A stretch of 64,000 bases of DNA from positions 38,619 to 102,618 of the forward strand of contig DATFXM010000030.1 of assembly GCA_035315885.1 (NCBI GenBank). The letters are read 5' to 3'. The translations under genes and the position numbers were made by a program. Source of the DNA: Blastocatellia bacterium. Its GTDB lineage: Bacteria; Acidobacteriota; Blastocatellia; UBA7656. Positions 9,652 through 27,887 of the stretch are shown here, one piece after another; the first letter of the stretch is position 1, and the number at the start of each line of letters is the position of its first letter. The notes under the pieces were generated by a model. The model saw only the letters and a list, made by a program, of their open reading frames with translations. It had not been told where the DNA came from and did not search any database.

Positions 9652-9774
9652 TCGGAGCGCTCCTTTCCGGCTTGCTTCCGATTAATCGGACATCGACGAA
9701 CAGGTCGCGTCCTGCGGCCTTCGAACGAAGCTGAGGGCTCGCCGATGCTTCCCCTGGTCACACCACGTGCAAAC

Positions 9775-9807
9775 CTACTGCAAGGCTACTGCAACGCTAC
9801 TGCCACG
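9775..9807. repeat. Three tandem 11-nt direct repeats (CTACTGCAAGG / CTACTGCAACG / CTACTGCCACG) in the cox promoter region
   Basis: Read directly from the sequence. Lies ~125-155 nt upstream of the ctaC start codon on the opposite strand. Confidence 0.35.
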
Positions 9808-12157: not shown

Positions 12158-13810
12158 CTACGCACCCGGCGGCTTAGTCGATTGCGAATCGAACAAGATC
12201 TTCGTCCGTTTCATAAACGCGATGAGCACAATAAGCCCCAACGCCACCCACGCCATGAACATGAAGGCGTCCATGTACGCGAGCGTGAATGCCTGCTGTC
12301 TTACCTGTCCGCTGAGCAGTGCGACCGAACGCTTTTGCGCCTCATCCAATCCTGAGGAGTTGGAGCTGACACCGCCGGTGAGCCAACGCAGACGCTCGTC
12401 GGTCAGCCAATCCCCGACCTCAACGTGCAGTCCGATCAAATTCGAGTGAAACTTCTCGCGTACCGCGATGAAATGCCCCATGAGGGAGCTGCCGGCTTCG
12501 CCTCCGAGGATCCTGACGCTGTGAACGAAGCATGAAAAGGTAAGGACATTAAACGGTCGCGAGAGGGCTCCCACCTCCTGCAGGTACTGGACCATCCCCC
12601 CGATTAGGGAGACGAAGGTGAATGAAAGGCCAACCGCGATGACAAGTTGAGAAGTCCAGAAGTTATCCCCCGCCCACGCGCTGGTAAGCTGTGCGTTGAG
12701 CAGGCAAGCCACCGCGACAGTCGCGAATCCAGTGGCCAGCATCAGCCTTTGATCAAGTCGGCGCATCAACCACGCCGCAACGAGACCGATAACAACCTGC
12801 GGGGCGGCTACCCACAGCAACACGCGACCGGTCTCGAGCGGACGATATCCTTGTATCGCACCCAGATATCCCGGAACCAGCAATGCAATGGCGAGTATCA
12901 CGAACCGCAGGCCAAACAACCCGGTATAGAGAATGAGGATGTTTCTCTGTCCGAGGAACGGAATATTCACAAGTGGGTTTGGCGAGATCCACCGCCGAAT
13001 TATCGCGGCGAGGATTAGGAACGCAGCGCTGACCAGCATCGCGACAATTACGCCCGAGCCCAACCAGTCCAATCGTTCTCCCTGATCGAGCACGCCATAC
13101 AACAGGCTCAAGGCGACACTGGCCCACAGGAAGCCTGCCCAGCTTATGTGTGGCTTCGGCCCGGTTCGCGCCGGAGGGTTCGGTATTGCCTTGTATATGC
13201 ACAGGATCATCAACATCGACGCCAGCGGGCCAATCCAGAAGATCCAGCGCCACGATAGATGCTCGTTGAAAAACGCTTGCAGCGGTACGGCGAGCGAAGT
13301 CCCCGCTAGAATGTCCATCGAATAGACACCAATACCGTAAATTGTGAAACGCAGAGGTAGCTGGCGCAGCGCAAAAGTCATCGTCAACGGGTAGAACGTG
13401 CCGGACAATAAACCCGCGATCACCTGCAGAGCCAACAACACTGCGAGGTTCGGTGAGAACGGCGCCAGGAACGAAACCACCGCATAGATGGGCGCACAAA
13501 ACAGCAGCACCCGTCTGACTCCCAACAATCCGCCGAGGTAGACCGAGAACGGTCCCATGAACATCAGCCCCATGCTGTAAGTGGTCGGAATCCAGGACGC
13601 CTCGTCCACGCCGAGCCCTAATGCCCCGCGGAGATCAGGCAGCCCGACCGACAGCAGCCGCCCAAACAGCGTGGTGATTCCTGCGCCGAGGAACACGCCC
13701 AGTGTGCCAAGGTAAGGATTCGGCTTGACCTCAAGCCTCCCCTGGAACGGCCGCCATATCGGGAATGAGAGTCCCCGGGGCGCAACTTGGGTTGTTGCGG
13801 TCGAGCTCAC
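12158..13810 (-). CDS. emrB: MFS transporter, DHA2 (EmrB/QacA) family, 14 TM
   Basis: 550 aa, 14 predicted TM helices, EmrB-like N-terminus. Lies downstream of HlyD and TolC genes. Confidence 0.8.
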   Translation of the reverse strand: MSSTATTQVAPRGLSFPIWRPFQGRLEVKPNPYLGTLGVFLGAGITTLFGRLLSVGLPDLRGALGLGVDEASWIPTTYSMGLMFMGPFSVYLGGLLGVRRVLLFCAPIYAVVSFLAPFSPNLAVLLALQVIAGLLSGTFYPLTMTFALRQLPLRFTIYGIGVYSMDILAGTSLAVPLQAFFNEHLSWRWIFWIGPLASMLMILCIYKAIPNPPARTGPKPHISWAGFLWASVALSLLYGVLDQGERLDWLGSGVIVAMLVSAAFLILAAIIRRWISPNPLVNIPFLGQRNILILYTGLFGLRFVILAIALLVPGYLGAIQGYRPLETGRVLLWVAAPQVVIGLVAAWLMRRLDQRLMLATGFATVAVACLLNAQLTSAWAGDNFWTSQLVIAVGLSFTFVSLIGGMVQYLQEVGALSRPFNVLTFSCFVHSVRILGGEAGSSLMGHFIAVREKFHSNLIGLHVEVGDWLTDERLRWLTGGVSSNSSGLDEAQKRSVALLSGQVRQQAFTLAYMDAFMFMAWVALGLIVLIAFMKRTKILFDSQSTKPPGA

Positions 13811-15225
13811 TGACTGTTCCTCGCGGTTTTGGTGTCGCTATGCTTGCCGGATGCGTTGATCTCGACGATCACCGACATTCCCGATCTCAGTCGCTTTGCC
13901 GATTCCTGGTCGTGGTCAATGAGAATCTTGACTGGTATGCGCTGCACGATCTTGGTGAAGTTGCCGGACGCGTTGTCCGGAGGGAGCAGGGCAAATTGCG
14001 ACCCGCTGGCAGGGGAGATCTGTTCGACATGGCCGTTCAGCCTGAGGCCGGGAAATGTATCAACGGTGATCACCGCCGAATCGCCCTTGGTTATGTTGGT
14101 GAGTTGGGTCTCCTTATAGTTAGCCTGAACCCATACATCGCTCTCCACGAGCGAGATCACCTGTGTGCCCGGGCTGACGAGTTGCCCCACGCGGACTTTG
14201 CGTTCTCCTACGACACCGTCTGTCGGAGCGAGAATTCGCGTGTATTCCAGGTTCGTGTTGGCTACCTTGACCGCCTCTTCCTTCGCCCTCAAGTCAGCCT
14301 TGAGTTGTAGTTCCTGCGCGTCGAGCACTCCTCGCTGTCGTTGCTGAGCCTGAAGTTCCGACTCGCGACTGGCCAGTGAGGCGCGCGCCTGCTGCGCCTG
14401 CGCCTTTCTGAGCGCAAGCAGCGCCTTGCTCTTTGACAGGTCGGCTAGTCGGCTTTCCAACGTCGCGGCGTATCGCTGTTCGTCGGCGGTGACCTGTTCG
14501 AATTTCTGCTTAGTCGCAGAGGCAGAGTCCAACAACGCTTCTTGTCGTTTCTTTTCCAACTGCGTTCGCACGACGTCGGCCCTGGTGCCGTCCACGCTGG
14601 CCTCAGCATTCGATATCTCGGCTTTCGCGGCCTCGACGCTGGCGTCTGTCTGAGCGATGTCGGCTTTGGCAGCCTCAACACCGGCTTCAGCCTGTGCGAT
14701 TTTTGACTCCTGAAGCGCCTTTTGTTTTGCGTTGTTCACCAGGGTGGCATTGGCCGCTTGCACTGCAGCTTCTGACTGCTCGACCTGCGCACGGTAATCC
14801 TCGTCCTTGATCTGTACGAGCAGGTCGCCGGCCTTCACGGTTTGATAATCTTCGACCGCAACTTGCGTCACCGTACCGGAGACTCTCGTGCTCAGAGGGG
14901 TGATGTCAGCTCGCAGGTAGGCGTCATCCGTTTTCTGGCTACCTGTCCTGCCAACCCATGAATTCCAGCTTGAAGTGATGAGAATAAGGAGCGCCACCGC
15001 GATCAATATCACCAGGACTGGAGTGAACCTGCGCAAAGTGCCACGCGGCTTCTTGACCTGTTCGACGTGCGAATCGGAACTCGCCGCGGCCGCTTTCTCA
15101 ACCGGTTGACCAGGGGTAGTAGCTGGTTTGGATTGATCCGGGTGCTGATCGGAGATCGCTCCCGATGGCTTGGCGTCTTGTGTCGTGTTTGGCGTGGGCA
15201 TTCGGTTCACTCCTTCTTGTGTCAC
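13807..15225 (-). CDS. emrA: HlyD/EmrA-family membrane fusion protein with a long coiled coil
   Basis: N-terminal TM (VLVILIAVALLILI), extended Ala/Gln/Glu-rich coiled coil, and a C-terminal beta-barrel/lipoyl-like domain. A 4-nt overlap with emrB indicates an operon. Confidence 0.8.
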   Translation of the reverse strand: MTQEGVNRMPTPNTTQDAKPSGAISDQHPDQSKPATTPGQPVEKAAAASSDSHVEQVKKPRGTLRRFTPVLVILIAVALLILITSSWNSWVGRTGSQKTDDAYLRADITPLSTRVSGTVTQVAVEDYQTVKAGDLLVQIKDEDYRAQVEQSEAAVQAANATLVNNAKQKALQESKIAQAEAGVEAAKADIAQTDASVEAAKAEISNAEASVDGTRADVVRTQLEKKRQEALLDSASATKQKFEQVTADEQRYAATLESRLADLSKSKALLALRKAQAQQARASLASRESELQAQQRQRGVLDAQELQLKADLRAKEEAVKVANTNLEYTRILAPTDGVVGERKVRVGQLVSPGTQVISLVESDVWVQANYKETQLTNITKGDSAVITVDTFPGLRLNGHVEQISPASGSQFALLPPDNASGNFTKIVQRIPVKILIDHDQESAKRLRSGMSVIVEINASGKHSDTKTARNSQ

Positions 15226-16565
15226 TTTTCTTCGCCGATCGACTTTTCAAATTCGGCTTTTGCAGTCCAGTAACCGAGAAGCGCGTCTTGGTATTTGTGA
15301 TTGGCTTCGGCAAGCGAGGCCTGTGACTGCAGGACATCGGACAACAGGGCTGCGGTCACCTTGTACTTGTTGGCGTTGATGCGCAGTACTTCACGAGCAG
15401 TTTCCTGTCCGAGTTGCGCAACGACCAGGGCCTGGCGGGTCTGTTGGAATTTGCGGAACTTATCGCCCACATCGATCAGGACCAGGCTCTCGGCTTCGTG
15501 TAAGCCAGTCTTGGCCTGCTCGATGAGTTTCGATTTTTCCGCCATTTGATCTTTCTTTCTTCCCCAATCGAAGATCTCCCATTTGACGAGCACACCGATG
15601 TTCGCAAAGTTCTGCGGGACGCCGCTGTCGAAATTTCGCAGTGTCACATATCTGAATCCGAGGGTAACATCGGGAATGTATTCGGACTTTATGATCCGGC
15701 GATCTACTTCCGCTTCCTTTATCCTCAGTCGCGCCTCTCTCACTTCGGGACGCTGATCCAGCGCGCGCGCGCGGGCCGAGGCGAGTTCAAGGTTATAGTC
15801 CGTCTGGGTGGGGACGGCGCTTACACTGAAATTCGTTTCCACGTCGCGGCCAAGAAGGTTGTTGAGCTGTTCTTTTTCGGTCGCGAGTTGGTTCGTAAGG
15901 TTGAGGGCATCATACTCGGCCTTCGCCAGGCGTGTTTCCACCTCGAGGCGATCGGATTTCAAGACAACCTGCTGTGCAACGTAGTCTCCGGTCACACGAT
16001 CCAGCTCGCGGTAAAGCCTTATGGCTTCAAGCACGCTTTCGAGTGCGCTCTGAGATTGGAGGATCGAGTAGTAGGTTCGCTTGACGCGATCAACTATGGA
16101 TTGTCTGACGTGGCGAAGTTTTTCATTGGTTACGTCGCGTGCCAGCTTGCCGTGCTTAATGGTCAGTCCGATGCGGTACTGCTGCGACAAGGGCTGAGCT
16201 ATCAGCGAGGTGAAGACGGTTGTCGGTCGCCGCGGAACAGTGAGGGGAGCAAACGAGTCGACGCCGGGGAGAAGGTCGGTTGTGACAGATTTCAGGTTGA
16301 TCTCATGCTGAACCATTTGGATTGAGGTGAGCGAGAACAAATTCATTGACGGCAATCGCATCGTGCGAATTGCTGCTAGATTGTCTTCGGCCTTGCCGAC
16401 TTCGAGTTCGGCGATCTTCACCAAATGGCTGTCGCTGAGGGCCAGCGAGATTGCCTGGTCTAGCGTAAGCACTTCGCCGGGAGCCGATCTGTCCCTTTGG
16501 CCGAAGGCACTAATTGGGGTCAGTAGCAATATGAACACTGCAAAGTTGGTCTTTGTTCGTCGCAT
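15222..16565 (-). CDS. TolC-family outer membrane efflux protein
   Basis: Signal peptide, then two repeats of the OEP/TolC helical-barrel pattern. Overlaps emrA by 4 nt. Confidence 0.75.
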   Translation of the reverse strand: MRRTKTNFAVFILLLTPISAFGQRDRSAPGEVLTLDQAISLALSDSHLVKIAELEVGKAEDNLAAIRTMRLPSMNLFSLTSIQMVQHEINLKSVTTDLLPGVDSFAPLTVPRRPTTVFTSLIAQPLSQQYRIGLTIKHGKLARDVTNEKLRHVRQSIVDRVKRTYYSILQSQSALESVLEAIRLYRELDRVTGDYVAQQVVLKSDRLEVETRLAKAEYDALNLTNQLATEKEQLNNLLGRDVETNFSVSAVPTQTDYNLELASARARALDQRPEVREARLRIKEAEVDRRIIKSEYIPDVTLGFRYVTLRNFDSGVPQNFANIGVLVKWEIFDWGRKKDQMAEKSKLIEQAKTGLHEAESLVLIDVGDKFRKFQQTRQALVVAQLGQETAREVLRINANKYKVTAALLSDVLQSQASLAEANHKYQDALLGYWTAKAEFEKSIGEEK

Positions 16566-16568
16566 GAC

Positions 16569-17663
16569 CTATACCTCTGGTGTTGGACTAAGAGTCGGTC
16601 GAACAATGCCTAACTTTCGCATCCTGAATGTCAGCGTGCTGCGATTGATTCCGAGTCTTTTCGCCGCTCCCTCTGGACCTCCAATCACCCAACTTGTTTC
16701 TTTCAGCACGGTCAGGATGTGGGCCCTCTCCACTTCCTCAAGAGTTCTTGAAGAAGACGAGGACACCCTGATCGAGCGCTGCACTTCAAAGACGGCGGGA
16801 CGCAGCGTTCCGTCAACCGACATAACCACCGCTCGTTCGATCACGTTCTGAAGCTCCCGAACGTTCCCGGGCCAGTCATAGCTCAGTAGCGCCCTTAATA
16901 CTTCGGGGGGAAAATCGTCGATCCGCCTGTTTAGTCTCTCGGAGTATTTCCTGGCGAAGTATCTGGCGAGTAAGATGACGTCTTCACCGCGTTCACGCAG
17001 GGCTGGAGCGAAAAGTGGGATGATGTCCAGCCGGTAATAGAGGTCGCTGCGGAACTTGCCACTTTGTACCAACTGGCCGAGGTCGCGGTTGGTCGCAGCA
17101 ACGACTCGGACATTCGGTGTGATGGTTCGGCTGCTGCCGAGTCGCTCAAACCCTTGATCCTGCAACACACGCAAAAGCTTCGGCTGGAGTTCCAGCGGGA
17201 GCTCGCCAACCTCGTCCAAAAAGAGAGTGCCATTGTGTGCAAGTTCAAGGCGGCCGACGCGCTGATTGACTGCGCCGGTGAATGCCCCACGTTCGTGGCC
17301 GAACAGCTCGCTTTCGAACAGGCTAGGCGGGATGGCGGCGCAATTGATTTTGATGAAGTTGTTGTGTCGCCTGGAGCTGAGATTGTGAATGGCGTCGGCG
17401 ATGAGCTCTTTGCCGGTGCCGGTCTCTCCATTGATCAGCACTGTCGAGTCTGTTGGCGCGACGAGCTCTGCCTGGTTGAGCATGTTTAGAAGCGCAGGGC
17501 TGTTGCCAATAATGTCGTTGAATTGCTGGACCGATCGCACATCCTTGGGCACGTCCGTCTTACTCTTGGCGTCAGAGCCTTGGCCTGCACTTGCGTCGCG
17601 TAAGGAGGGAACGACCCAACTTTGTGGAAGCGAGCCCGTTCGGTTGACTAAGACTGCGCTCAT
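16569..17663 (-). CDS. Sigma-54-dependent transcriptional activator (PspF-like bEBP) lacking an N-terminal sensory/receiver domain
   Basis: Walker A GETGTGKE, GAFTGA loop (ERGAFTGAVNQR), and C-terminal Fis-type HTH (AAKRLGINRSTLTFRMRKLGI). Only ~55 aa precede the AAA+ core. Confidence 0.85.
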   Translation of the reverse strand: MSAVLVNRTGSLPQSWVVPSLRDASAGQGSDAKSKTDVPKDVRSVQQFNDIIGNSPALLNMLNQAELVAPTDSTVLINGETGTGKELIADAIHNLSSRRHNNFIKINCAAIPPSLFESELFGHERGAFTGAVNQRVGRLELAHNGTLFLDEVGELPLELQPKLLRVLQDQGFERLGSSRTITPNVRVVAATNRDLGQLVQSGKFRSDLYYRLDIIPLFAPALRERGEDVILLARYFARKYSERLNRRIDDFPPEVLRALLSYDWPGNVRELQNVIERAVVMSVDGTLRPAVFEVQRSIRVSSSSSRTLEEVERAHILTVLKETSWVIGGPEGAAKRLGINRSTLTFRMRKLGIVRPTLSPTPEV

Positions 17664-17933
17664 AAGGTGCTATCTCCTTTGCCTCATAAAGAACGTTTTC
17701 GTAATGCTTGTTCTGCTTTCCAGAAACCTCGCATCGCTGTCGACTTCGTGTCTGAGGTGGTGAAGCGGTCGGAGCAAGACCTCGTCGAGTGCTTCGAGTA
17801 CGGGGTCCAAGTTCGCTTTGCTTGCTGCGTATTCTCGGAGGATTTCCATCATTTGGTCGCTGCAGCTCGAAGGCCTCCCTGCCGAGTTTGAAAACGCGGG
17901 AAGGGAATTGAGCCGATTCGAAGTCCTCTTCGA

Positions 17934-19115
17934 CTATGCTGCGATGCTGTTTCCCGGGGCTGTCCGGGAGTAAGCCGATTGCAGTGCCGCGGCTGCAAGG
18001 CTTGGTTCGCTGTCGTCACGGAAGCACGCCAGTTTCTTGCCGCTGTGATCGAGGTCTAAAACGACTATGTCTCCCAGGCGTAGTTGCCTCGATGCGGCAA
18101 GGTTGGCCAACGGGTGCACCACAAACCGCTCGATGGCGCGCTTCAAGTGGCGAGCGCCGTACCTGTAGTCGGTTCCTTCTCTGAGAAGAAATTCTTTTGC
18201 TTCTATAGTGGCGGTAACCGTGAACCGCTCGCTCGCGCCTTCGTCGATCCTTTGCTGCACCCCCGCGAGCTCCAGGTCGACGATGTTGCGCAATTGCTCG
18301 GGTCCGAGGCTCCTGAAGACCACCACTTTGTCAATTCGGTTCATGAATTCCGGTGAGAACTTCCGCCTCGCCGCCTCTGCTGCGGTGCGGTAAATCTTCT
18401 GGTCCAATTCTTCCGGAGCCAACTGGTCGCCGCCCGAGGGCGCAAAACCGATTGCGCCATCGACTAACTGGTTCATCTCGCGAGCTCCCAGGTTCGAGGT
18501 CATGAAGATCATGGTCTGCGAGAAGTCCACCTGCCGGTTGTCGCCGAGGGTGAGCGTGGCTTTGTCGAGGATTCCCAACAGGAGCTGCCAAAGCGCGTCG
18601 CTCGCCTTCTCGATCTCATCGAACAGTACCAGGCTGAACGGATTCGTCTCGGTGTGATACTTGTTGAGTCTTTCTTGCGTCAGCAAGGGCTGCGTTTCGC
18701 GATGACCGAGGTAGCCCGGAGGTGAGCCGATGAGCTTGGCGATCTCGTGCGAGTGCTGGAACTCGGCGCAATCAATCTTTATGACGGCGTTGCGGGAACC
18801 GAAGAGCGCTTCTGCCGCTGCCTCGATTACGTGCGTCTTACCCGTTCCGGTCGGACCGAGAAAGAGCATCGTCCCGATGGGCTTGTCCGGACTGGTCATC
18901 CCTGCCTGGAATACCTGGTACAGCGAAGCGATCTTGCGCACGGCCCGCTCTTGTCCGACAACGCGAGCGCGCAGATCTGCTTCAAGTTGAGAGGCATGCA
19001 TGCTCTTGCACTCGGTATCAAGTGCGACCAATCTCTTTGTGTTGACCTTCTTGAACTCTCCGGTCTCGGTGATCGGTTGCGTCATTGGATTTGAGGTTTG
19101 ATAAGACATCGTCAT
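17934..19115 (-). CDS. Stand-alone ClpA/ClpB D2-like AAA+ ATPase (AAA_2 core plus ClpB_D2-small domain)
   Basis: Walker A GPTGTGKT, sensor/arginine region, and D2-small C-terminus (...YGARHLKRAIERFVVHPLANL). No N-domain, D1 or middle domain. Carries a 55-aa unique N-terminal extension. Confidence 0.7.
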   Translation of the reverse strand: MTMSYQTSNPMTQPITETGEFKKVNTKRLVALDTECKSMHASQLEADLRARVVGQERAVRKIASLYQVFQAGMTSPDKPIGTMLFLGPTGTGKTHVIEAAAEALFGSRNAVIKIDCAEFQHSHEIAKLIGSPPGYLGHRETQPLLTQERLNKYHTETNPFSLVLFDEIEKASDALWQLLLGILDKATLTLGDNRQVDFSQTMIFMTSNLGAREMNQLVDGAIGFAPSGGDQLAPEELDQKIYRTAAEAARRKFSPEFMNRIDKVVVFRSLGPEQLRNIVDLELAGVQQRIDEGASERFTVTATIEAKEFLLREGTDYRYGARHLKRAIERFVVHPLANLAASRQLRLGDIVVLDLDHSGKKLACFRDDSEPSLAAAALQSAYSRTAPGNSIAA

Positions 19116-19261
19116 GCCCCTTTCTTTTCATTCGCCCGGCAACTCTCGTCGTCGTTCAACGTGTTCAATCTCAGGTTCTCCGCTTAGCGCGAACGATCGC
19201 GTCGCGTTTCATCAAGCGTTGAATCTTCTTGTCAATCTCACATCGCTCGGTGAATAGAGGA

Positions 19262-19278
19262 GGCAACGTGGGGGCCAG
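19262..19278 (-). promoter_or_regulatory. Candidate sigma-54 (-24/-12) promoter for the AAA+ ATPase gene. Minus-strand sequence is TGGCCC-N5-TTGCC.
   Basis: The minus strand reads CTGGCCCCCACGTTGCC, with GG and GC separated by the canonical 10 nt. It lies ~150 nt upstream of the ATG at 19115. It is one of three conserved cassette copies. Confidence 0.4.
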
Positions 19279-19316
19279 TGCTAACTTGCTGAAAACATTC
19301 GGTGTGGGATCGAGGG

Positions 19317-19355
19317 TTCGCGAATTTCTCGCGAAAGGTCGCAAGAACATCGCCG
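19317..19355 (-). promoter_or_regulatory. Conserved dyad element (TTCGCGA-ATTTC-TCGCGAA followed by CGCAAGAAC), a candidate bEBP upstream activating sequence. Cassette copy 1.
   Basis: Perfect inverted repeat read from the sequence. Its centre lies ~60 nt upstream of the -24 element. Copies at 23571-23611 and 26626-26665 show a compensatory change. Confidence 0.4.
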
Positions 19356-19498
19356 TTAGTCCTGTCGCCTGAATTTAAGATTCAGTGAGCGACCACGCTC
19401 GAACTCGCGCGAGTCGATGCGTCGATACTATGCAGCTAGATTTGTGGTTCCAGTGTCGAGGTGGGATACCCAGACGCGAGCCGCATGCCCGTGCAGAG

Positions 19499-23519: not shown

Positions 23520-23537
23520 GGCAAAGTGGAGGCCAAT
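23520..23537 (-). promoter_or_regulatory. Candidate sigma-54 promoter (minus strand TGGCCT-N5-TTGCC) for the lipoprotein/VWA/TonB transcription unit. Cassette copy 2.
   Basis: The minus strand reads TTGGCCTCCACTTTGCC, GG-N10-GC. It lies ~125 nt upstream of ATG 23393. Confidence 0.4.
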
Positions 23538-23570
23538 CTTAAGTTGCTGATATTAATCAGCCGGTGATCT

Positions 23571-23611
23571 TCGTTCGTGAATTTCTTGCGAAGAGCCGCA
23601 AGAACCTTGCC
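23571..23611 (-). promoter_or_regulatory. Conserved dyad/UAS element, copy 2 (TTCGTGA-ATTTC-TTGCGAA ... GCAAGAAC)
   Basis: Aligns with copies at 19317-19355 and 26626-26665. A second overlapping dyad TTCTTGCG-N6-CGCAAGAA is perfect here. Confidence 0.4.
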
Positions 23612-26574: not shown

Positions 26575-26590
26575 GGCAACGCGAGGACCA
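26575..26590 (-). promoter_or_regulatory. Candidate sigma-54 promoter (minus strand TGGTCC-N5-TTGCC). Cassette copy 3.
   Basis: The minus strand reads ATGGTCCTCGCGTTGCC, GG-N10-GC. It lies ~190 nt upstream of ATG 26381. Confidence 0.35.
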
Positions 26591-26625
26591 TCCTAAGTTT
26601 TTGATTCTTAGTTGGGACGCTCTCG

Positions 26626-26665
26626 TGTTCGCAAATTTCTTGCGAATGTCCGCGAGAACGTTGCC
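26626..26665 (-). promoter_or_regulatory. Conserved dyad/UAS element, copy 3 (TTCGCAA-ATTTC-TTGCGAA ... CGCGAGAAC)
   Basis: Perfect inverted repeat. The central G-to-A change relative to copy 1 is matched by a C-to-T change in the partner arm, so the dyad is preserved. Confidence 0.4.
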
Positions 26666-26738: not shown

Positions 26739-27887
26739 CTACGCTGCGCTGAATGATGCGCGAGCGGGCCAGTCGACGACTTGATGCTTGAAGCGTCGCT
26801 TGTCGATTTTCAACATTTTGATTTTTGATTCTAATGTAGAGGAAGGGATGCCAAGCAGCGAGGCTGCACCGAACGGCCCGGATACTCGCCCCTTGCTTTC
26901 GACAAGGGCTGCTTCGATGGCGTCTTTCTGTTGAGTCGCGAACGAGCGTTGCGAACGCATCTCCGCTCCCGCTGCCGCGGCAGCAGCGGCACGCGCCCTC
27001 GACGGTCGTGCGGAGAGCCATTGCTCATCGATGTACAACGACTCCGAGTCGGAGACGATTACCGCTCGTTCCACGAGATTCTGCAGCTCTCGCACGTTGC
27101 CAGGCCAGCCGTACGACTGCAGCAGGCTCAAAGCCTTCTTGCTGATCATGTTGATTCTTTTCCCGGCCCTCGCGGCGATGCGGTGAGTGAAGTACTCGAC
27201 AAGAAGCGGAATGTCCTCCAAACGTTCGCGCAGCGGAGGCATTTCCAGCGGAAACACGTTCAGGCGGTAATACAGATCAGATCGGAACGTCTTCTCCTCG
27301 ATGGCAGCTTCCAGGTCCCGGTTGGTCGCGGCAATCACTCGAACGTTCACGCGTATTGGGCGATTACCGCCAACGCGCTCGAACTCACGCTCTTGAAGGA
27401 CTCGTAACAGCGTCACCTGGATCTCCGCGGGAAGCTCGCCGATCTCATCAAGGAAGATCGTCCCGCCGTCCGCCAATTCGAAGCGGCCTTGTCGGCGCTG
27501 CATCGCACCGGTAAACGCGCCCTTCTCGTGGCCGAAGAGCTCCGAGGCGATGAGCGACGGAGGGATCGCAGCGCAGTTGACGCTTATAAAAGGTCCATTA
27601 CATCGTCGTGATCGCTTGTGGATCGCTCGTGCGACGATCTCCTTGCCGGTCCCGGTCTCACCAGTGATCAACACGGTCGAATCTGTTGGAGCGACTTGGG
27701 ACACTTCCGATAGTACCGATCGTAAGGACGCCGAGATGCCGACGATTCCTTCGAACATTGAAGAACTGTCCGGCTGGTCACCGAAGACGATGTTGTCTTG
27801 AAGTTCGATGTCCCGGTCTATGACATCGTAAGTTGTGCGTTCAATCGGTTCCTGAACCCGGCGATGATCAGCAAAATAATTGCTCAT
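26739..27887 (-). CDS. Sigma-54-dependent transcriptional activator (PspF-like, no sensory domain), paralog of 16569..17663
   Basis: Walker A GETGTGKE, GAFTGA, and a C-terminal HTH (AASLLGIPSSTLESKIKMLKI). Only ~45 aa precede the AAA+ core. Confidence 0.85.
   Translation of the reverse strand: MSNYFADHRRVQEPIERTTYDVIDRDIELQDNIVFGDQPDSSSMFEGIVGISASLRSVLSEVSQVAPTDSTVLITGETGTGKEIVARAIHKRSRRCNGPFISVNCAAIPPSLIASELFGHEKGAFTGAMQRRQGRFELADGGTIFLDEIGELPAEIQVTLLRVLQEREFERVGGNRPIRVNVRVIAATNRDLEAAIEEKTFRSDLYYRLNVFPLEMPPLRERLEDIPLLVEYFTHRIAARAGKRINMISKKALSLLQSYGWPGNVRELQNLVERAVIVSDSESLYIDEQWLSARPSRARAAAAAAAGAEMRSQRSFATQQKDAIEAALVESKGRVSGPFGAASLLGIPSSTLESKIKMLKIDKRRFKHQVVDWPARASFSAA

Follow-up and report, generated by a model that had tools for sequence, protein, structure and literature searches.

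A stand-alone D2-type Clp ATPase with a conserved IGF loop, a candidate single-ring partner of ClpP under sigma-54-type promoter control in Blastocatellia

Accepted bacterial partners of the ClpP peptidase are few: ClpX, ClpA, ClpC, ClpE and, recently, ClpI. ClpA and ClpC are class I enzymes whose D2 ring combines an AAA_2 domain with a D2-small domain and, between sensor-1 and the arginine finger, has a flexible loop bearing the tripeptide hydrophobic-Gly-Phe/Leu. ClpX, of class II, has one AAA+ module per subunit, an IGF loop, and a zinc-binding N-domain. Natural ClpB has an N-domain, a D1 ring, and a coiled-coil M-domain and no IGF loop, and an engineered variant, BAP, is ClpB given the ClpP-binding loop of ClpA. 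Single D2-type modules that act on their own are represented by human Skd3/CLPB, which has an ankyrin-repeat N-domain and works without ClpP, and by ClpM of the apicoplast. ClpM and ClpN are classified as class II Clp ATPases with one nucleotide-binding domain (PMC9495089). The ClpP-binding loop serves to tell ClpP partners from ClpB (PMC10149685, PMC9495089), in which it is absent (PMC10149685). Here, we describe a protein from a Blastocatellia bacterium that combines a lone D2 module of ClpB/ClpC descent with such a loop. The window is the whole 64-kb stretch of DNA that was analyzed, and the gene and the catalytic motifs of its product lie within it as follows.

17934..19115, minus strand: Clp/Hsp100 single-module ATPase gene (the Clp gene), 393 amino acids from the first ATG, from the ORF list and its translation
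17934-17936, minus strand: stop codon of the Clp gene
18834..18857, minus strand: Walker A, GPTGTGKT (residues 87-94), columns invariant or nearly so in alignments A1 and A2
18705..18716, minus strand: pore-1 loop, GYLG (residues 134-137), with substrate-gripping Y135, aligned with GYVG of ClpA, ClpB, and ClpC
18609..18629, minus strand: Walker B, VLFDEIE (residues 163-169), aligned with Walker B of ClpB and ClpC
18330..18359, minus strand: FSPEFMNRID (residues 253-262) with arginine finger R260, invariant columns, aligned with FRPEFLNR of ClpB and ClpC
18138..18158, minus strand: sensor-2, GARHLKR (residues 320-326), in the D2-small domain, aligned with GARPL(K/R)R of ClpB and ClpC

The Clp protein is built from a D2 module and little else. 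Pfam finds AAA_2 at residues 78 to 263 (4e-38; 131.4 bits against a cutoff of 27) and ClpB_D2-small at residues 270 to 351 (1e-16; 60.7 bits against a cutoff of 21.9), both above their gathering scores, and no other Pfam domain. Walker A and B, GYLG, sensor-1, the arginine finger, and sensor-2 are all present and are invariant or nearly so in 60 homologues; G134, Y135, L136, and G137 are invariant across these sequences, as are L164 through K170, and in sensor-2 G320 and A321 do not vary and R322 hardly does. The best-scoring NCBIfam model is ClpB, but the match covers model positions 556 to 847 of 853, the D2 part only, at 251 bits against a cutoff of 1232. The ClpA model gives 208 bits (cutoff, 993), and the 27.6 bits obtained with the ClpX model (cutoff, 359) place the protein outside the ClpX family, whose zinc-binding N-domain was also not found in it by Pfam. 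In a PDB sequence search, the D2 domain of ClpB (1.9e-60) and ClpC (2.9e-60) were matched at 207 and 208 bits, respectively, and overall similarity is no closer to ClpC; by sequence the D2 of ClpB/Hsp104 scores highest. An AlphaFold2 model (pLDDT, 77) was matched by Foldseek to ClpB NBD2 and to ClpC within ClpC-ClpP complexes, although a monomer model cannot reveal ring formation or docking. The module descends from the ClpB/ClpC D2 lineage and not from ClpX, and unlike ClpA and ClpC it comes without Clp_N, a D1 ring, or an M-domain. A family-specific insertion of about seven residues follows the pore loop in the alignment and is a further difference from ClpA and ClpC.

Whether so short a Clp protein is merely the remains of a larger one is answered by its relatives. 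The first-pass annotation had described a stand-alone D2-type Hsp100 module lacking the N-domain, D1, and the coiled-coil middle domain, and had argued against a clpB fragment created by a frameshift. Both points hold: sequences resembling D1 or the N-domain were not found anywhere in the 64-kb window by tblastn with E. coli ClpB residues 1 to 545 and ClpA residues 1 to 440, and homologues of the same length, 60 to 83% identical and with intact catalytic motifs, occur at more than 590 species-level genome loci of Blastocatellia/Pyrinomonadaceae. Among the best 150 of the representatives of 50%-identity clusters, identity ranges from 31 to 76%, and most are also single-module proteins. Distant matches of 670 to 820 amino acids had been candidates for two-ring Clp proteins, but those scanned are single-module proteins interrupted by inteins. 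By its sequence, the ORF is a genuine, intact gene and not a broken clpB. A fragment or pseudogene of clpB or clpC, or a mobile or antiphage ATPase of the DolB or PDC-M37B type, is a very improbable and largely refuted explanation. PADLOC does return PDC-M37B (3e-23) and DolB (4e-16), a relative with 58% identity sits on a phage-like contig, and phrog_4871 is matched among PHROGs. The PADLOC matches, however, are partial, being confined to the generic AAA+ core (residues 22 to 219), and have much lower scores than the ClpB D2 match. Moreover, no defense model was matched among the neighbors except through a generic bEBP core, and we rejected a defense system for want of partner genes nearby. 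Hundreds of strongly conserved homologues of equal length, family members in stable housekeeping contexts, and the lack of a D1 remnant in the window speak against this explanation as a whole.

The two ends of the Clp protein differ in their conservation.

19035..19115, minus strand: N-terminal leader (residues 1-27), variable and predicted to be disordered (alignment A1)
17937..18020, minus strand: family-specific C-terminal extension (residues 366-393), made up of an RDD motif, a helix rich in Ala, and, at the end, a disordered -IAA tail

A unique N-terminal extension of 55 amino acids had been proposed, and this does not survive alignment. Family-wide conservation begins near R28 (RLVALD), homology to the D2 of ClpB and ClpC begins at residue 35 to 43 (NCBIfam and PDB search), and the roughly 27 extra residues are recognizable in the nearest subclade and missing from most of the family (alignment A1); residues 1 to 23 have a pLDDT below 50. 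Translation probably starts at the second ATG, at 19109, to give 391 amino acids, as relatives begin with the corresponding MSYQ and a purine-rich AAAGGGG lies about 7 nt 5' of that codon. The C-terminal extension is instead a shared feature, with conserved positions R366, D367, A374, A376, A377, A392, and A393, a helix modeled at residues 370 to 385, and a disordered tail at 384 to 393. Like the Ala-rich helix, the -IAA tail is not a feature of ClpA or ClpC, and among 120 family members 114 end in AA, 94 of these in IAA. By analogy with the ssrA degron, the tail may make the Clp protein a substrate of ClpXP or of itself, which would limit the lifetime of the enzyme. A tmRNA gene, sought for comparison of its tag with the tail, was not found in the window or in 10 loci. 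A 60-aa ORF 3' of the Clp gene was considered as a conserved small partner and dropped, as it resembles none of the small ORFs behind homologues and has no Pfam match.

The feature that decides how the Clp protein is best read is a loop.

18429..18467, minus strand: flexible loop (residues 217-229) with I222-G223-F224 (nucleotides 18444-18452), the predicted ClpP-docking loop

Calling the protein ClpB-type, as had been done from the sequence at first, misses this loop, which lies between sensor-1 and the D2 arginine finger and has the (I/L/V)G(F/L) form that marks ClpA and ClpC. G223 and F224 are invariant in the family and I222 is at least 90% conserved; IGF is found in 116 of 119 readable family loops, and [ILMFV]G[FY] stands at the same place in 84 of 100 readable loops of more distant single-module relatives. 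In the alignment, the tripeptide falls at the position of IGL-617 of E. coli ClpA and of the GF motif of S. aureus ClpC, offset by one to two columns, whereas in ClpB the loop there is some 17 residues shorter and has no IGF-type motif. The modeled loop has a pLDDT below 50, consistent with flexibility. The stretch around the tripeptide reads DGAIGFAP in the Clp protein and GSGIGFGA in E. coli ClpX. The family-wide presence of an IGF loop at the docking position points away from a ClpB-like chaperone and toward a partner of a protease. These sequences are best read as a single-ring ClpP partner that resembles ClpX but is made from a D2 module.

Whether the Clp protein needs ClpP at all is the main point at issue. 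It could be a stand-alone unfoldase or remodeler that, like the D2 of ClpB or like mitochondrial Skd3/CLPB, refolds or extracts pump or envelope components, or a bEBP, and degrades nothing, an explanation close to that of the first-pass annotation. ClpB D2 is among the best matches in both sequence and fold, and human Skd3/CLPB, a disaggregase with a single D2-type module, is a detectable relative (about 1e-32), albeit at a far lower similarity (about 115 bits) and with an ankyrin-repeat domain that the Clp protein does not have. Moreover, the gene is not linked to clpP: a tblastn search with E. coli ClpP as the query gave no hit in the 64-kb window or, in 88 related loci, up to 10 kb from the gene, and so it is the loop motif by itself that points to ClpP. 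The missing linkage is weak counterevidence, however, because in bacteria clpA and clpC are normally unlinked to clpP. Without ClpP, it is difficult to account for a long flexible loop that carries IGF family-wide at the position used for ClpP docking, and in the alignment, as in the literature (PMC10149685), ClpB does without that loop. We consider action independent of ClpP unlikely, if well short of negligible.

How the Clp protein would work as a ClpP partner can be drawn from its relatives. A D2 module isolated from a two-ring Clp protein does not always assemble into hexamers. We nevertheless lean, by a modest degree, toward an active hexameric D2-only unfoldase that belongs to a sigma-54 regulon and partners with ClpP through its IGF loop. 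The D2-type AAA+ module would assemble as a single-ring hexamer, thread substrates through the GYLG pore loops, and pass the unfolded chains to the ClpP peptidase, to which it would dock by the IGF tripeptide on the flexible loop, as ClpX, ClpA, and ClpC do. The architecture and predicted mode of action, one ring and an IGF loop, would be those of ClpX, and the ring itself would be of the ClpB/ClpC D2 type by descent. BAP offers an engineered parallel, in that it too joins a ClpB-type D2 to a ClpP loop, and its structures (5ofo, 5og1, and 4d2q) are among the PDB and Foldseek matches. Compared with natural ClpB, the Clp protein lacks the N-domain, D1, and the M-domain and carries the loop by nature.

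Expression of the Clp gene appears to depend on sigma-54. The first-pass annotation had placed the gene directly behind a sigma-54 promoter, in a unit adjoining a bEBP gene, and the elements concerned are as follows.

19263-19277, minus strand: sigma-54-type -24/-12 element TGGCCCCCACGTTGC, 148 nt upstream of the Clp ATG
19317..19335, no strand: perfect palindrome TTCGCGA-N5-TCGCGAA, lying 40 nt 5' of the -24 element, candidate enhancer (bEBP-binding site)
23521..23592, minus strand: second promoter of this design, composed of a palindrome (23574-23592) and TGGCCTCCACTTTGC (23521-23535)
26576..26646, minus strand: third promoter of this design, composed of a palindrome (26628-26646) and TGGTCCTCGCGTTGC (26576-26590)
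19141..19235, minus strand: 5' remnant of a STAS-domain gene, deleted or degraded here and intact in the closest relatives
19422..19479, minus strand: 3'-terminal remnant of a second bEBP gene copy, matching the 3' end of the bEBP gene of relative L083 at 81% DNA identity, weak tblastn match
16569..17663, minus strand: downstream bEBP gene, 364 amino acids, Sigma54_activat, AAA_lid_14, and HTH_8, no N-terminal sensor domain
15222-16565, minus strand: OEP of a tripartite efflux pump, the pump genes together spanning 12158..16565
13807-15225, minus strand: HlyD-type adaptor of the pump
12158-13810, minus strand: MFS transporter of the pump

The element TGGCCCCCACGTTGC has one mismatch to TGGCAC-N5-TTGC, its GG and GC are 10 nt apart, and it is oriented toward the Clp gene. 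A scan allowing up to two mismatches gave 73 matches against 66 expected, and because a match by itself is not above chance, conservation was required as evidence. The element is conserved as TGGCCCTCACGTTGC in close relatives (L081, L083, and L084), and analogous sites precede Clp orthologues or paralogues in other genomic contexts (L093, L094, L095, and L097); one subclade context, L096, showed no site. The palindrome is conserved in L083 and L081 and recurs, with two mismatches, 38 to 39 nt upstream of two further GG-N10-GC sites in the window, one upstream of a cassette encoding a 228-aa protein, a 304-aa protein, VWA, and TonB and the other downstream of the second of the two bEBP genes in the locus (26739-27887). 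A sigma-54 promoter for the Clp gene, retained in relatives and one of three in the window that share a palindrome, is thus supported, and sigma-54 control is conserved in most subclade contexts. "Directly" is less apt, as the 148-nt gap holds the 5' remnant of the deleted STAS gene; the segment from 19141 to 19359 is 71% identical by blastn to 9579-9800 of L083. A GATCGTTC stretch upstream of the Clp gene, considered as a promoter element of the core family, was rejected as part of that remnant. The association with the downstream bEBP gene stands, with no terminator predicted between the two, and pump gene order is identical in L081 and in L083-L084.

What the Clp gene does for its neighbors varies with the lineage. 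A role for the adjacent VWA/TPR/TonB envelope cassette, proposed from the sequence at first, is not borne out in the family at large: tblastn with 15 neighbor proteins found no neighbor of the window gene beside a homologue in any of 80 related genome loci, and we dropped this cassette as the object of the family's activity. Modulation of the bEBP, also proposed, is possible, and a bEBP adjoins the gene in only two sub-lineages. More specifically, the ATPase and a STAS-domain partner might form a dedicated regulator of the sigma-54 circuit, setting the level or activity of sensorless bEBPs by degradation or ring disassembly and with it the on/off kinetics of the efflux regulon. A bEBP, a small STAS-like gene, the Clp gene, and a tripartite efflux pump are grouped in both of these sub-lineages, which differ in the bEBP (sensorless or GAF), the pump (MFS or RND), the STAS sequence, and gene order, and neither window bEBP has a sensory domain, such that both need control in trans. 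In this they resemble PspF, which likewise has only the AAA+ sigma-54 domain and an HTH, but unlike in PspF systems there is no PspA-like gene, the window bEBP scores below the PspF equivalog cutoff (288 versus 443), and the cotranscribed partner is a Clp-type ATPase. Most family members, however, lack a bEBP at distances of up to 10 kb, as seen at 80 genome loci and in several subclade contexts, and the STAS assignments are weak, one being just above the Pfam cutoff and the other below it. A tblastn search with the STAS protein gave no match in the window, and because the gene has been lost here, part of the original Clp-STAS module may be nonfunctional. We regard a dedicated sigma-54 regulator as distinctly unlikely. 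In the ClpP-partner reading that we prefer, the -24/-12 promoter and palindromic enhancer would drive the Clp gene, the sensorless bEBP, and the tripartite MFS pump, and membership of a three-promoter regulon would have the Clp protein produced on demand alongside functions in efflux and respiration. Most probably, it would be induced by stress to degrade damaged proteins or the regulators of the regulon itself.

No account of a lone bacterial D2 module bearing an IGF loop came up in the literature search, whose coverage was incomplete; novelty is unproven, and the earlier remark that such proteins are poorly characterized agrees with this result. We speculate, with more doubt than confidence, that the Clp family and its wider single-module relatives, phage-borne and intein-containing ones included, are an unrecognized class of ClpP-partner unfoldases that combine a single D2-type ring with an IGF loop for docking and a self-limiting, ssrA-like -AA tail, with sigma-54 control and small STAS-domain proteins as adaptors in the Acidobacteriota, and that in loci like the window they act as a proteolytic switch of a bEBP-driven stress regulon for efflux and respiration. 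If true, a natural one-ring ClpP partner made from a ClpB/ClpC-type D2 would be a new class, would offer a compact model of substrate unfolding and delivery by a lone D2 ring, and would mean that the idea behind BAP has a natural precedent. The family, a large one, resides in soil Acidobacteriota and is apparently unstudied. Its size, and the mostly single-module makeup of its relatives, suggest that it may be a major component of proteostasis in these abundant soil bacteria. Finally, the link to sigma-54 and the bEBP, STAS, and efflux pump associations that recur in a subset of contexts would provide a handle on inducible stress and efflux regulation in the Acidobacteriota, where it is almost unstudied.

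The Clp gene (17934-19115, minus strand) encodes 393 aa with a single D2-type AAA+ module. Pfam placed AAA_2 at residues 78 to 263 (4e-38) and ClpB_D2-small at residues 270 to 351 (1e-16) and found no other specific domain. Only positions 556 to 847 of 853 in the NCBIfam ClpB model were covered, at 251 bits and far under the equivalog cutoff of 1232 bits, and the ClpA, ClpV, ClpK, and ClpG models gave the same pattern. Moreover, queries with E. coli ClpB residues 1 to 545 and ClpA residues 1 to 440 found no D1 or N-domain sequence in the whole window. Because the window lacks such sequence and the profiles match over D2 only, the stand-alone D2 architecture proposed by the first-pass annotation is real. 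Its claim that the gene is not a broken clpB also stands, given the D1-free window and hundreds of conserved homologs of the same size in the protein database (370 to 400 aa, 70 to 83% identity). A species-level genome collection held at least 590 loci with a homolog, nearly all labeled Blastocatellia, Pyrinomonadaceae, or Acidobacteriota and a few of them MAGs labeled otherwise. An alignment of 60 members shows little or no variation in Walker A, Walker B, the GYLG pore loop, sensor-1, the Arg finger, or sensor-2. The Clp gene, judged by its sequence, is thus an intact gene and no fragment; the reading as a gene fragment or a defense ATPase deserves almost no credence and is essentially refuted. 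Databases annotate the family generically as "AAA family ATPase" or as ClpA/ClpB subunits. We note that in the top-scoring database match (P0001, 547 aa, Pyrinomonadaceae), about 150 residues of the AAA+ core are duplicated internally, through either a genuine tandem duplication or an artifact of assembly.

The N terminus is less unusual than the unique 55-aa extension first described. Homology to the ClpB/ClpC D2 begins at residue 35 to 43, and conservation across the whole family begins at about R28 (RLVALD), a segment that in a MAFFT alignment faces the stretch just ahead of the first ClpB D2 helix. Thus, only about 27 residues are extra, and this leader (MSYQTSN...) is recognizable in the closest subclade and missing from most other family members. 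Residues 1 to 23 are predicted to be disordered (pLDDT below 50). The second ATG, at 19109, is the likely start codon, as it agrees with relatives and is better spaced from a purine-rich AAAGGGG.

By overall sequence similarity, the Clp protein is equally close to the ClpB D2 (T. thermophilus, 1.9e-60) and to ClpC (S. aureus, 2.9e-60); ClpA (1e-39) and human CLPB/Skd3 (1e-32) are more remote. A structure search with the AlphaFold model (mean pLDDT 77, pTM 0.71) likewise retrieved ClpB NBD2 and ClpC from ClpC-ClpP complexes. What separates these proteins is the loop between sensor-1 (TSNLG) and the Arg-finger helix (FSPEFMNRID), which here reads VDGA-IGF-APSGGDQLAPEE. When the protein was aligned with E. 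coli ClpA and ClpB (from NC_000913.3) and the S. aureus ClpC D2, the IGF coincided, to within one or two columns, with IGL-617 of ClpA and the GF motif of ClpC, whereas ClpB has a loop shorter by about 17 residues and without the tripeptide. E. coli ClpX has a comparable GSGIGFGA. Within the family, G223 and F224 never vary and conservation of I222 is at least 90%; 116 of 119 readable loops have IGF and the others have VGF or MGF. Residues 217 to 229 are the sole internal segment with pLDDT below 50, which fits the expectation for a flexible docking loop, and the literature takes the tripeptide loop as the marker that tells ClpP partners from ClpB (PMC10149685, PMC9495089). Because the conserved IGF loop sits at the ClpA/ClpC position, we read the Clp protein as a probable single-ring ClpP partner, one that would work like ClpX but is built from a ClpB/ClpC-type D2. 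No clpP gene was found in the window or, in 88 related loci, at a distance of up to 10 kb from the homolog. The same motor might act as a ClpP-independent remodeler, but the conserved IGF loop opposes that reading and we consider it unlikely.

Other features are specific to the family. About 7 residues (QERLNKYH) are inserted after the pore loop, and a conserved C-terminal extension comprises an RDD motif, an Ala-rich helix (residues 370 to 385 in the model), and a disordered tail. Of 120 family members, 114 end in AA, 94 of them in IAA (17937-17945 in the Clp gene); an -AA ending also occurs in 11 of 150 remoter single-module relatives. The ssrA degron ends in LAA and is recognized by ClpX. 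Since the -IAA tail resembles that end, we speculate that it may limit the lifetime of the enzyme itself. In 25 core-family loci, the tmRNA partner SmpB is encoded about 4.4 kb from the Clp homolog, perhaps by coincidence.

Single-module proteins extend beyond the family. A full HMMER search against 1.84 billion cluster representatives returned 33,494 matches; the best 150 are 31 to 76% identical, and 130 of them are at most 520 aa and therefore single-module proteins. Among the wider relatives, 84 of 100 readable loops have [ILMFV]G[FY] at the IGF position. Five matches of 670 to 820 aa were scanned, and each is a single module split by an intein; in P0127, P0159, P0176, P0218, and P0239, an intein (Hint plus LAGLIDADG homing endonuclease) lies near the P-loop of the D2 module. 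Long proteins of 1018 to about 4900 aa (P0132, P0172, P0185, P0254, P0255, and P0270) have three matched D2 stretches each, and Pfam on one, P0132, found three AAA_2 plus D2-small modules. A 58% identical relative outside the Acidobacteriota family (P0122, loci L086/L087) is encoded on a 115-kb phage-like contig with many small ORFs, HNH endonucleases, ParB, a SNF2 helicase, and a DNA polymerase III beta-like sliding clamp. The Clp protein matches phrog_4871, "ATP-dependent protease," and cultured phages hold only relatives of at most 40% identity.

Expression of the Clp gene is probably governed by sigma-54. The sequence TGGCCCCCACGTTGC at 19263-19277 (minus strand) fits the consensus with one mismatch. 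The pattern is no commoner in the window than in shuffles, and the promoter call rests on comparative evidence. The following features of the window are referred to here and below.

16569-17663, bEBP (sigma-54 activator) gene without a sensor domain
19141-19235, 5' remnant of a STAS-domain gene, upstream of the Clp gene
19317-19335, perfect palindrome TTCGCGA-N5-TCGCGAA, 40 nt upstream of the Clp -24/-12 element
19422-19479, 3' remnant of a bEBP gene, upstream of the Clp gene
23521-23592, minus strand, second promoter: GG-N10-GC at 23521-23535, palindrome (two mismatches) 38 to 39 nt upstream
26576-26646, minus strand, third promoter: GG-N10-GC at 26576-26590, palindrome (two mismatches) 38 to 39 nt upstream
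26739-27887, bEBP gene without a sensor domain

The shared palindrome, spacing, and GG-N10-GC indicate three promoters of one design, and the palindrome flanks are conserved too (GTTCTyGCG...AGAAATTyrCGAAC). In the closest relatives, TGGCCCTCACGTTGC is conserved at the equivalent place. The promoter first proposed ahead of the Clp gene thus gains support from conserved sites and shared palindromes. Strong sites also occur in subclade members with quite different neighborhoods (TGGCACCGGGCTTGCA in L093, TGGCCCTCGGCTTGCC in L094, TGGCACCCACGTTGCC in L095, and TGGCACTCGCATTGCC in L097); one context, L096, has none. The three promoters and two sensor-less bEBP genes define a small predicted sigma-54 regulon, which would cover the VWA/TPR/TonB cassette, the Clp gene, an MFS efflux pump, and an NDH-2-like gene. 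No terminator was predicted between the Clp and bEBP genes.

Several other sites were noted. At 9769-9805 (minus strand), just upstream of cytochrome oxidase genes, three tandem 11-nt units (TTGCAGTAGNN) overlap a sigma-54-like match (TGGCAGTAGCGTTGC), and two of the closest loci (L081 and L083) have a similar single site, TGGCAGTACCTTTGC, at the same place. Among loci L011 to L080, 49 from Pyrinomonadaceae share a block 60 to 240 nt upstream of the Clp homolog, GCAAAC-N17-GCATCAAtt-N7-CGG(A/T)TCG(T/C)TC(C/T)TTGCA; nine Blastocatellia loci have GCAAC-N16-GGCATCAAAGTTGC upstream. The block may be either a sigma-54-like site, given the GG-N10-GC spacing of its last part, or an ECF-sigma -35/-10 pair, which its first part resembles. 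The third promoter is directly followed by a short ORF that runs downward from 26534 (minus strand), has a good Shine-Dalgarno (AAAGGAGG), and precedes a 291-aa gene. The ORF product of about 50 aa has a signal-peptide or lipoprotein-like N terminus and no Pfam match.

None of the window neighbors of the Clp gene was found in any of 80 related genome loci, and a role for the neighboring envelope cassette, as first suggested, is not borne out, the VWA/TPR/TonB link being absent from all 80. Most family members lie in a stable housekeeping setting, with neighbors that, by reading cluster sequences without a Pfam scan, look like inositol-phosphate synthase, a HEAT-repeat protein, a DnaJ-domain membrane protein, leucyl aminopeptidase, and SmpB. 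The order bEBP-STAS-Clp-bEBP-OEP-HlyD-MFS-NDH-2-like occurs only in the nearest relatives (82 to 83% identity), and the two gene remnants upstream of the Clp gene point to a deletion or rearrangement relative to them. In place of the remnants, the closest relatives have a 1087-aa Ser/Thr kinase-type gene, a bEBP gene, and the STAS gene. About 235 nt between the Clp stop and the bEBP start (17697-17931) are missing there, leaving a gap of about 43 nt, and a 60-aa ORF between the two genes (17670-17852) has no Pfam match and no likeness to small ORFs after homologs. A second sublineage has the order GAF-bEBP-Clp-STAS-like-OEP-MFP-RND, which departs from the nearest relatives in bEBP type, STAS sequence, gene order, and pump type alike. 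Recurrence despite these differences argues for a functional module in these lineages and would suit a proteolytic regulator dedicated to the bEBP/STAS circuit. However, a bEBP is lacking near most family members, and we doubt that reading strongly. Other subclade contexts include oxidative-stress genes with an RND pump, NDH-2 with cytochrome oxidase, and urease.

The fold and chemistry of the Clp protein are already known. In the literature, as far as our incomplete coverage extends, we found no description of a D2-only protein that combines a natural IGF loop and a conserved -IAA tail with control by sigma-54 and, occasionally, a STAS partner. We favor, with modest confidence, a sigma-54-induced, single-ring, ClpP-coupled unfoldase for stress proteolysis: sigma-54 would induce the Clp gene alongside efflux and respiratory functions, and the single D2-type ring would couple to ClpP, with stress proteolysis as the result.
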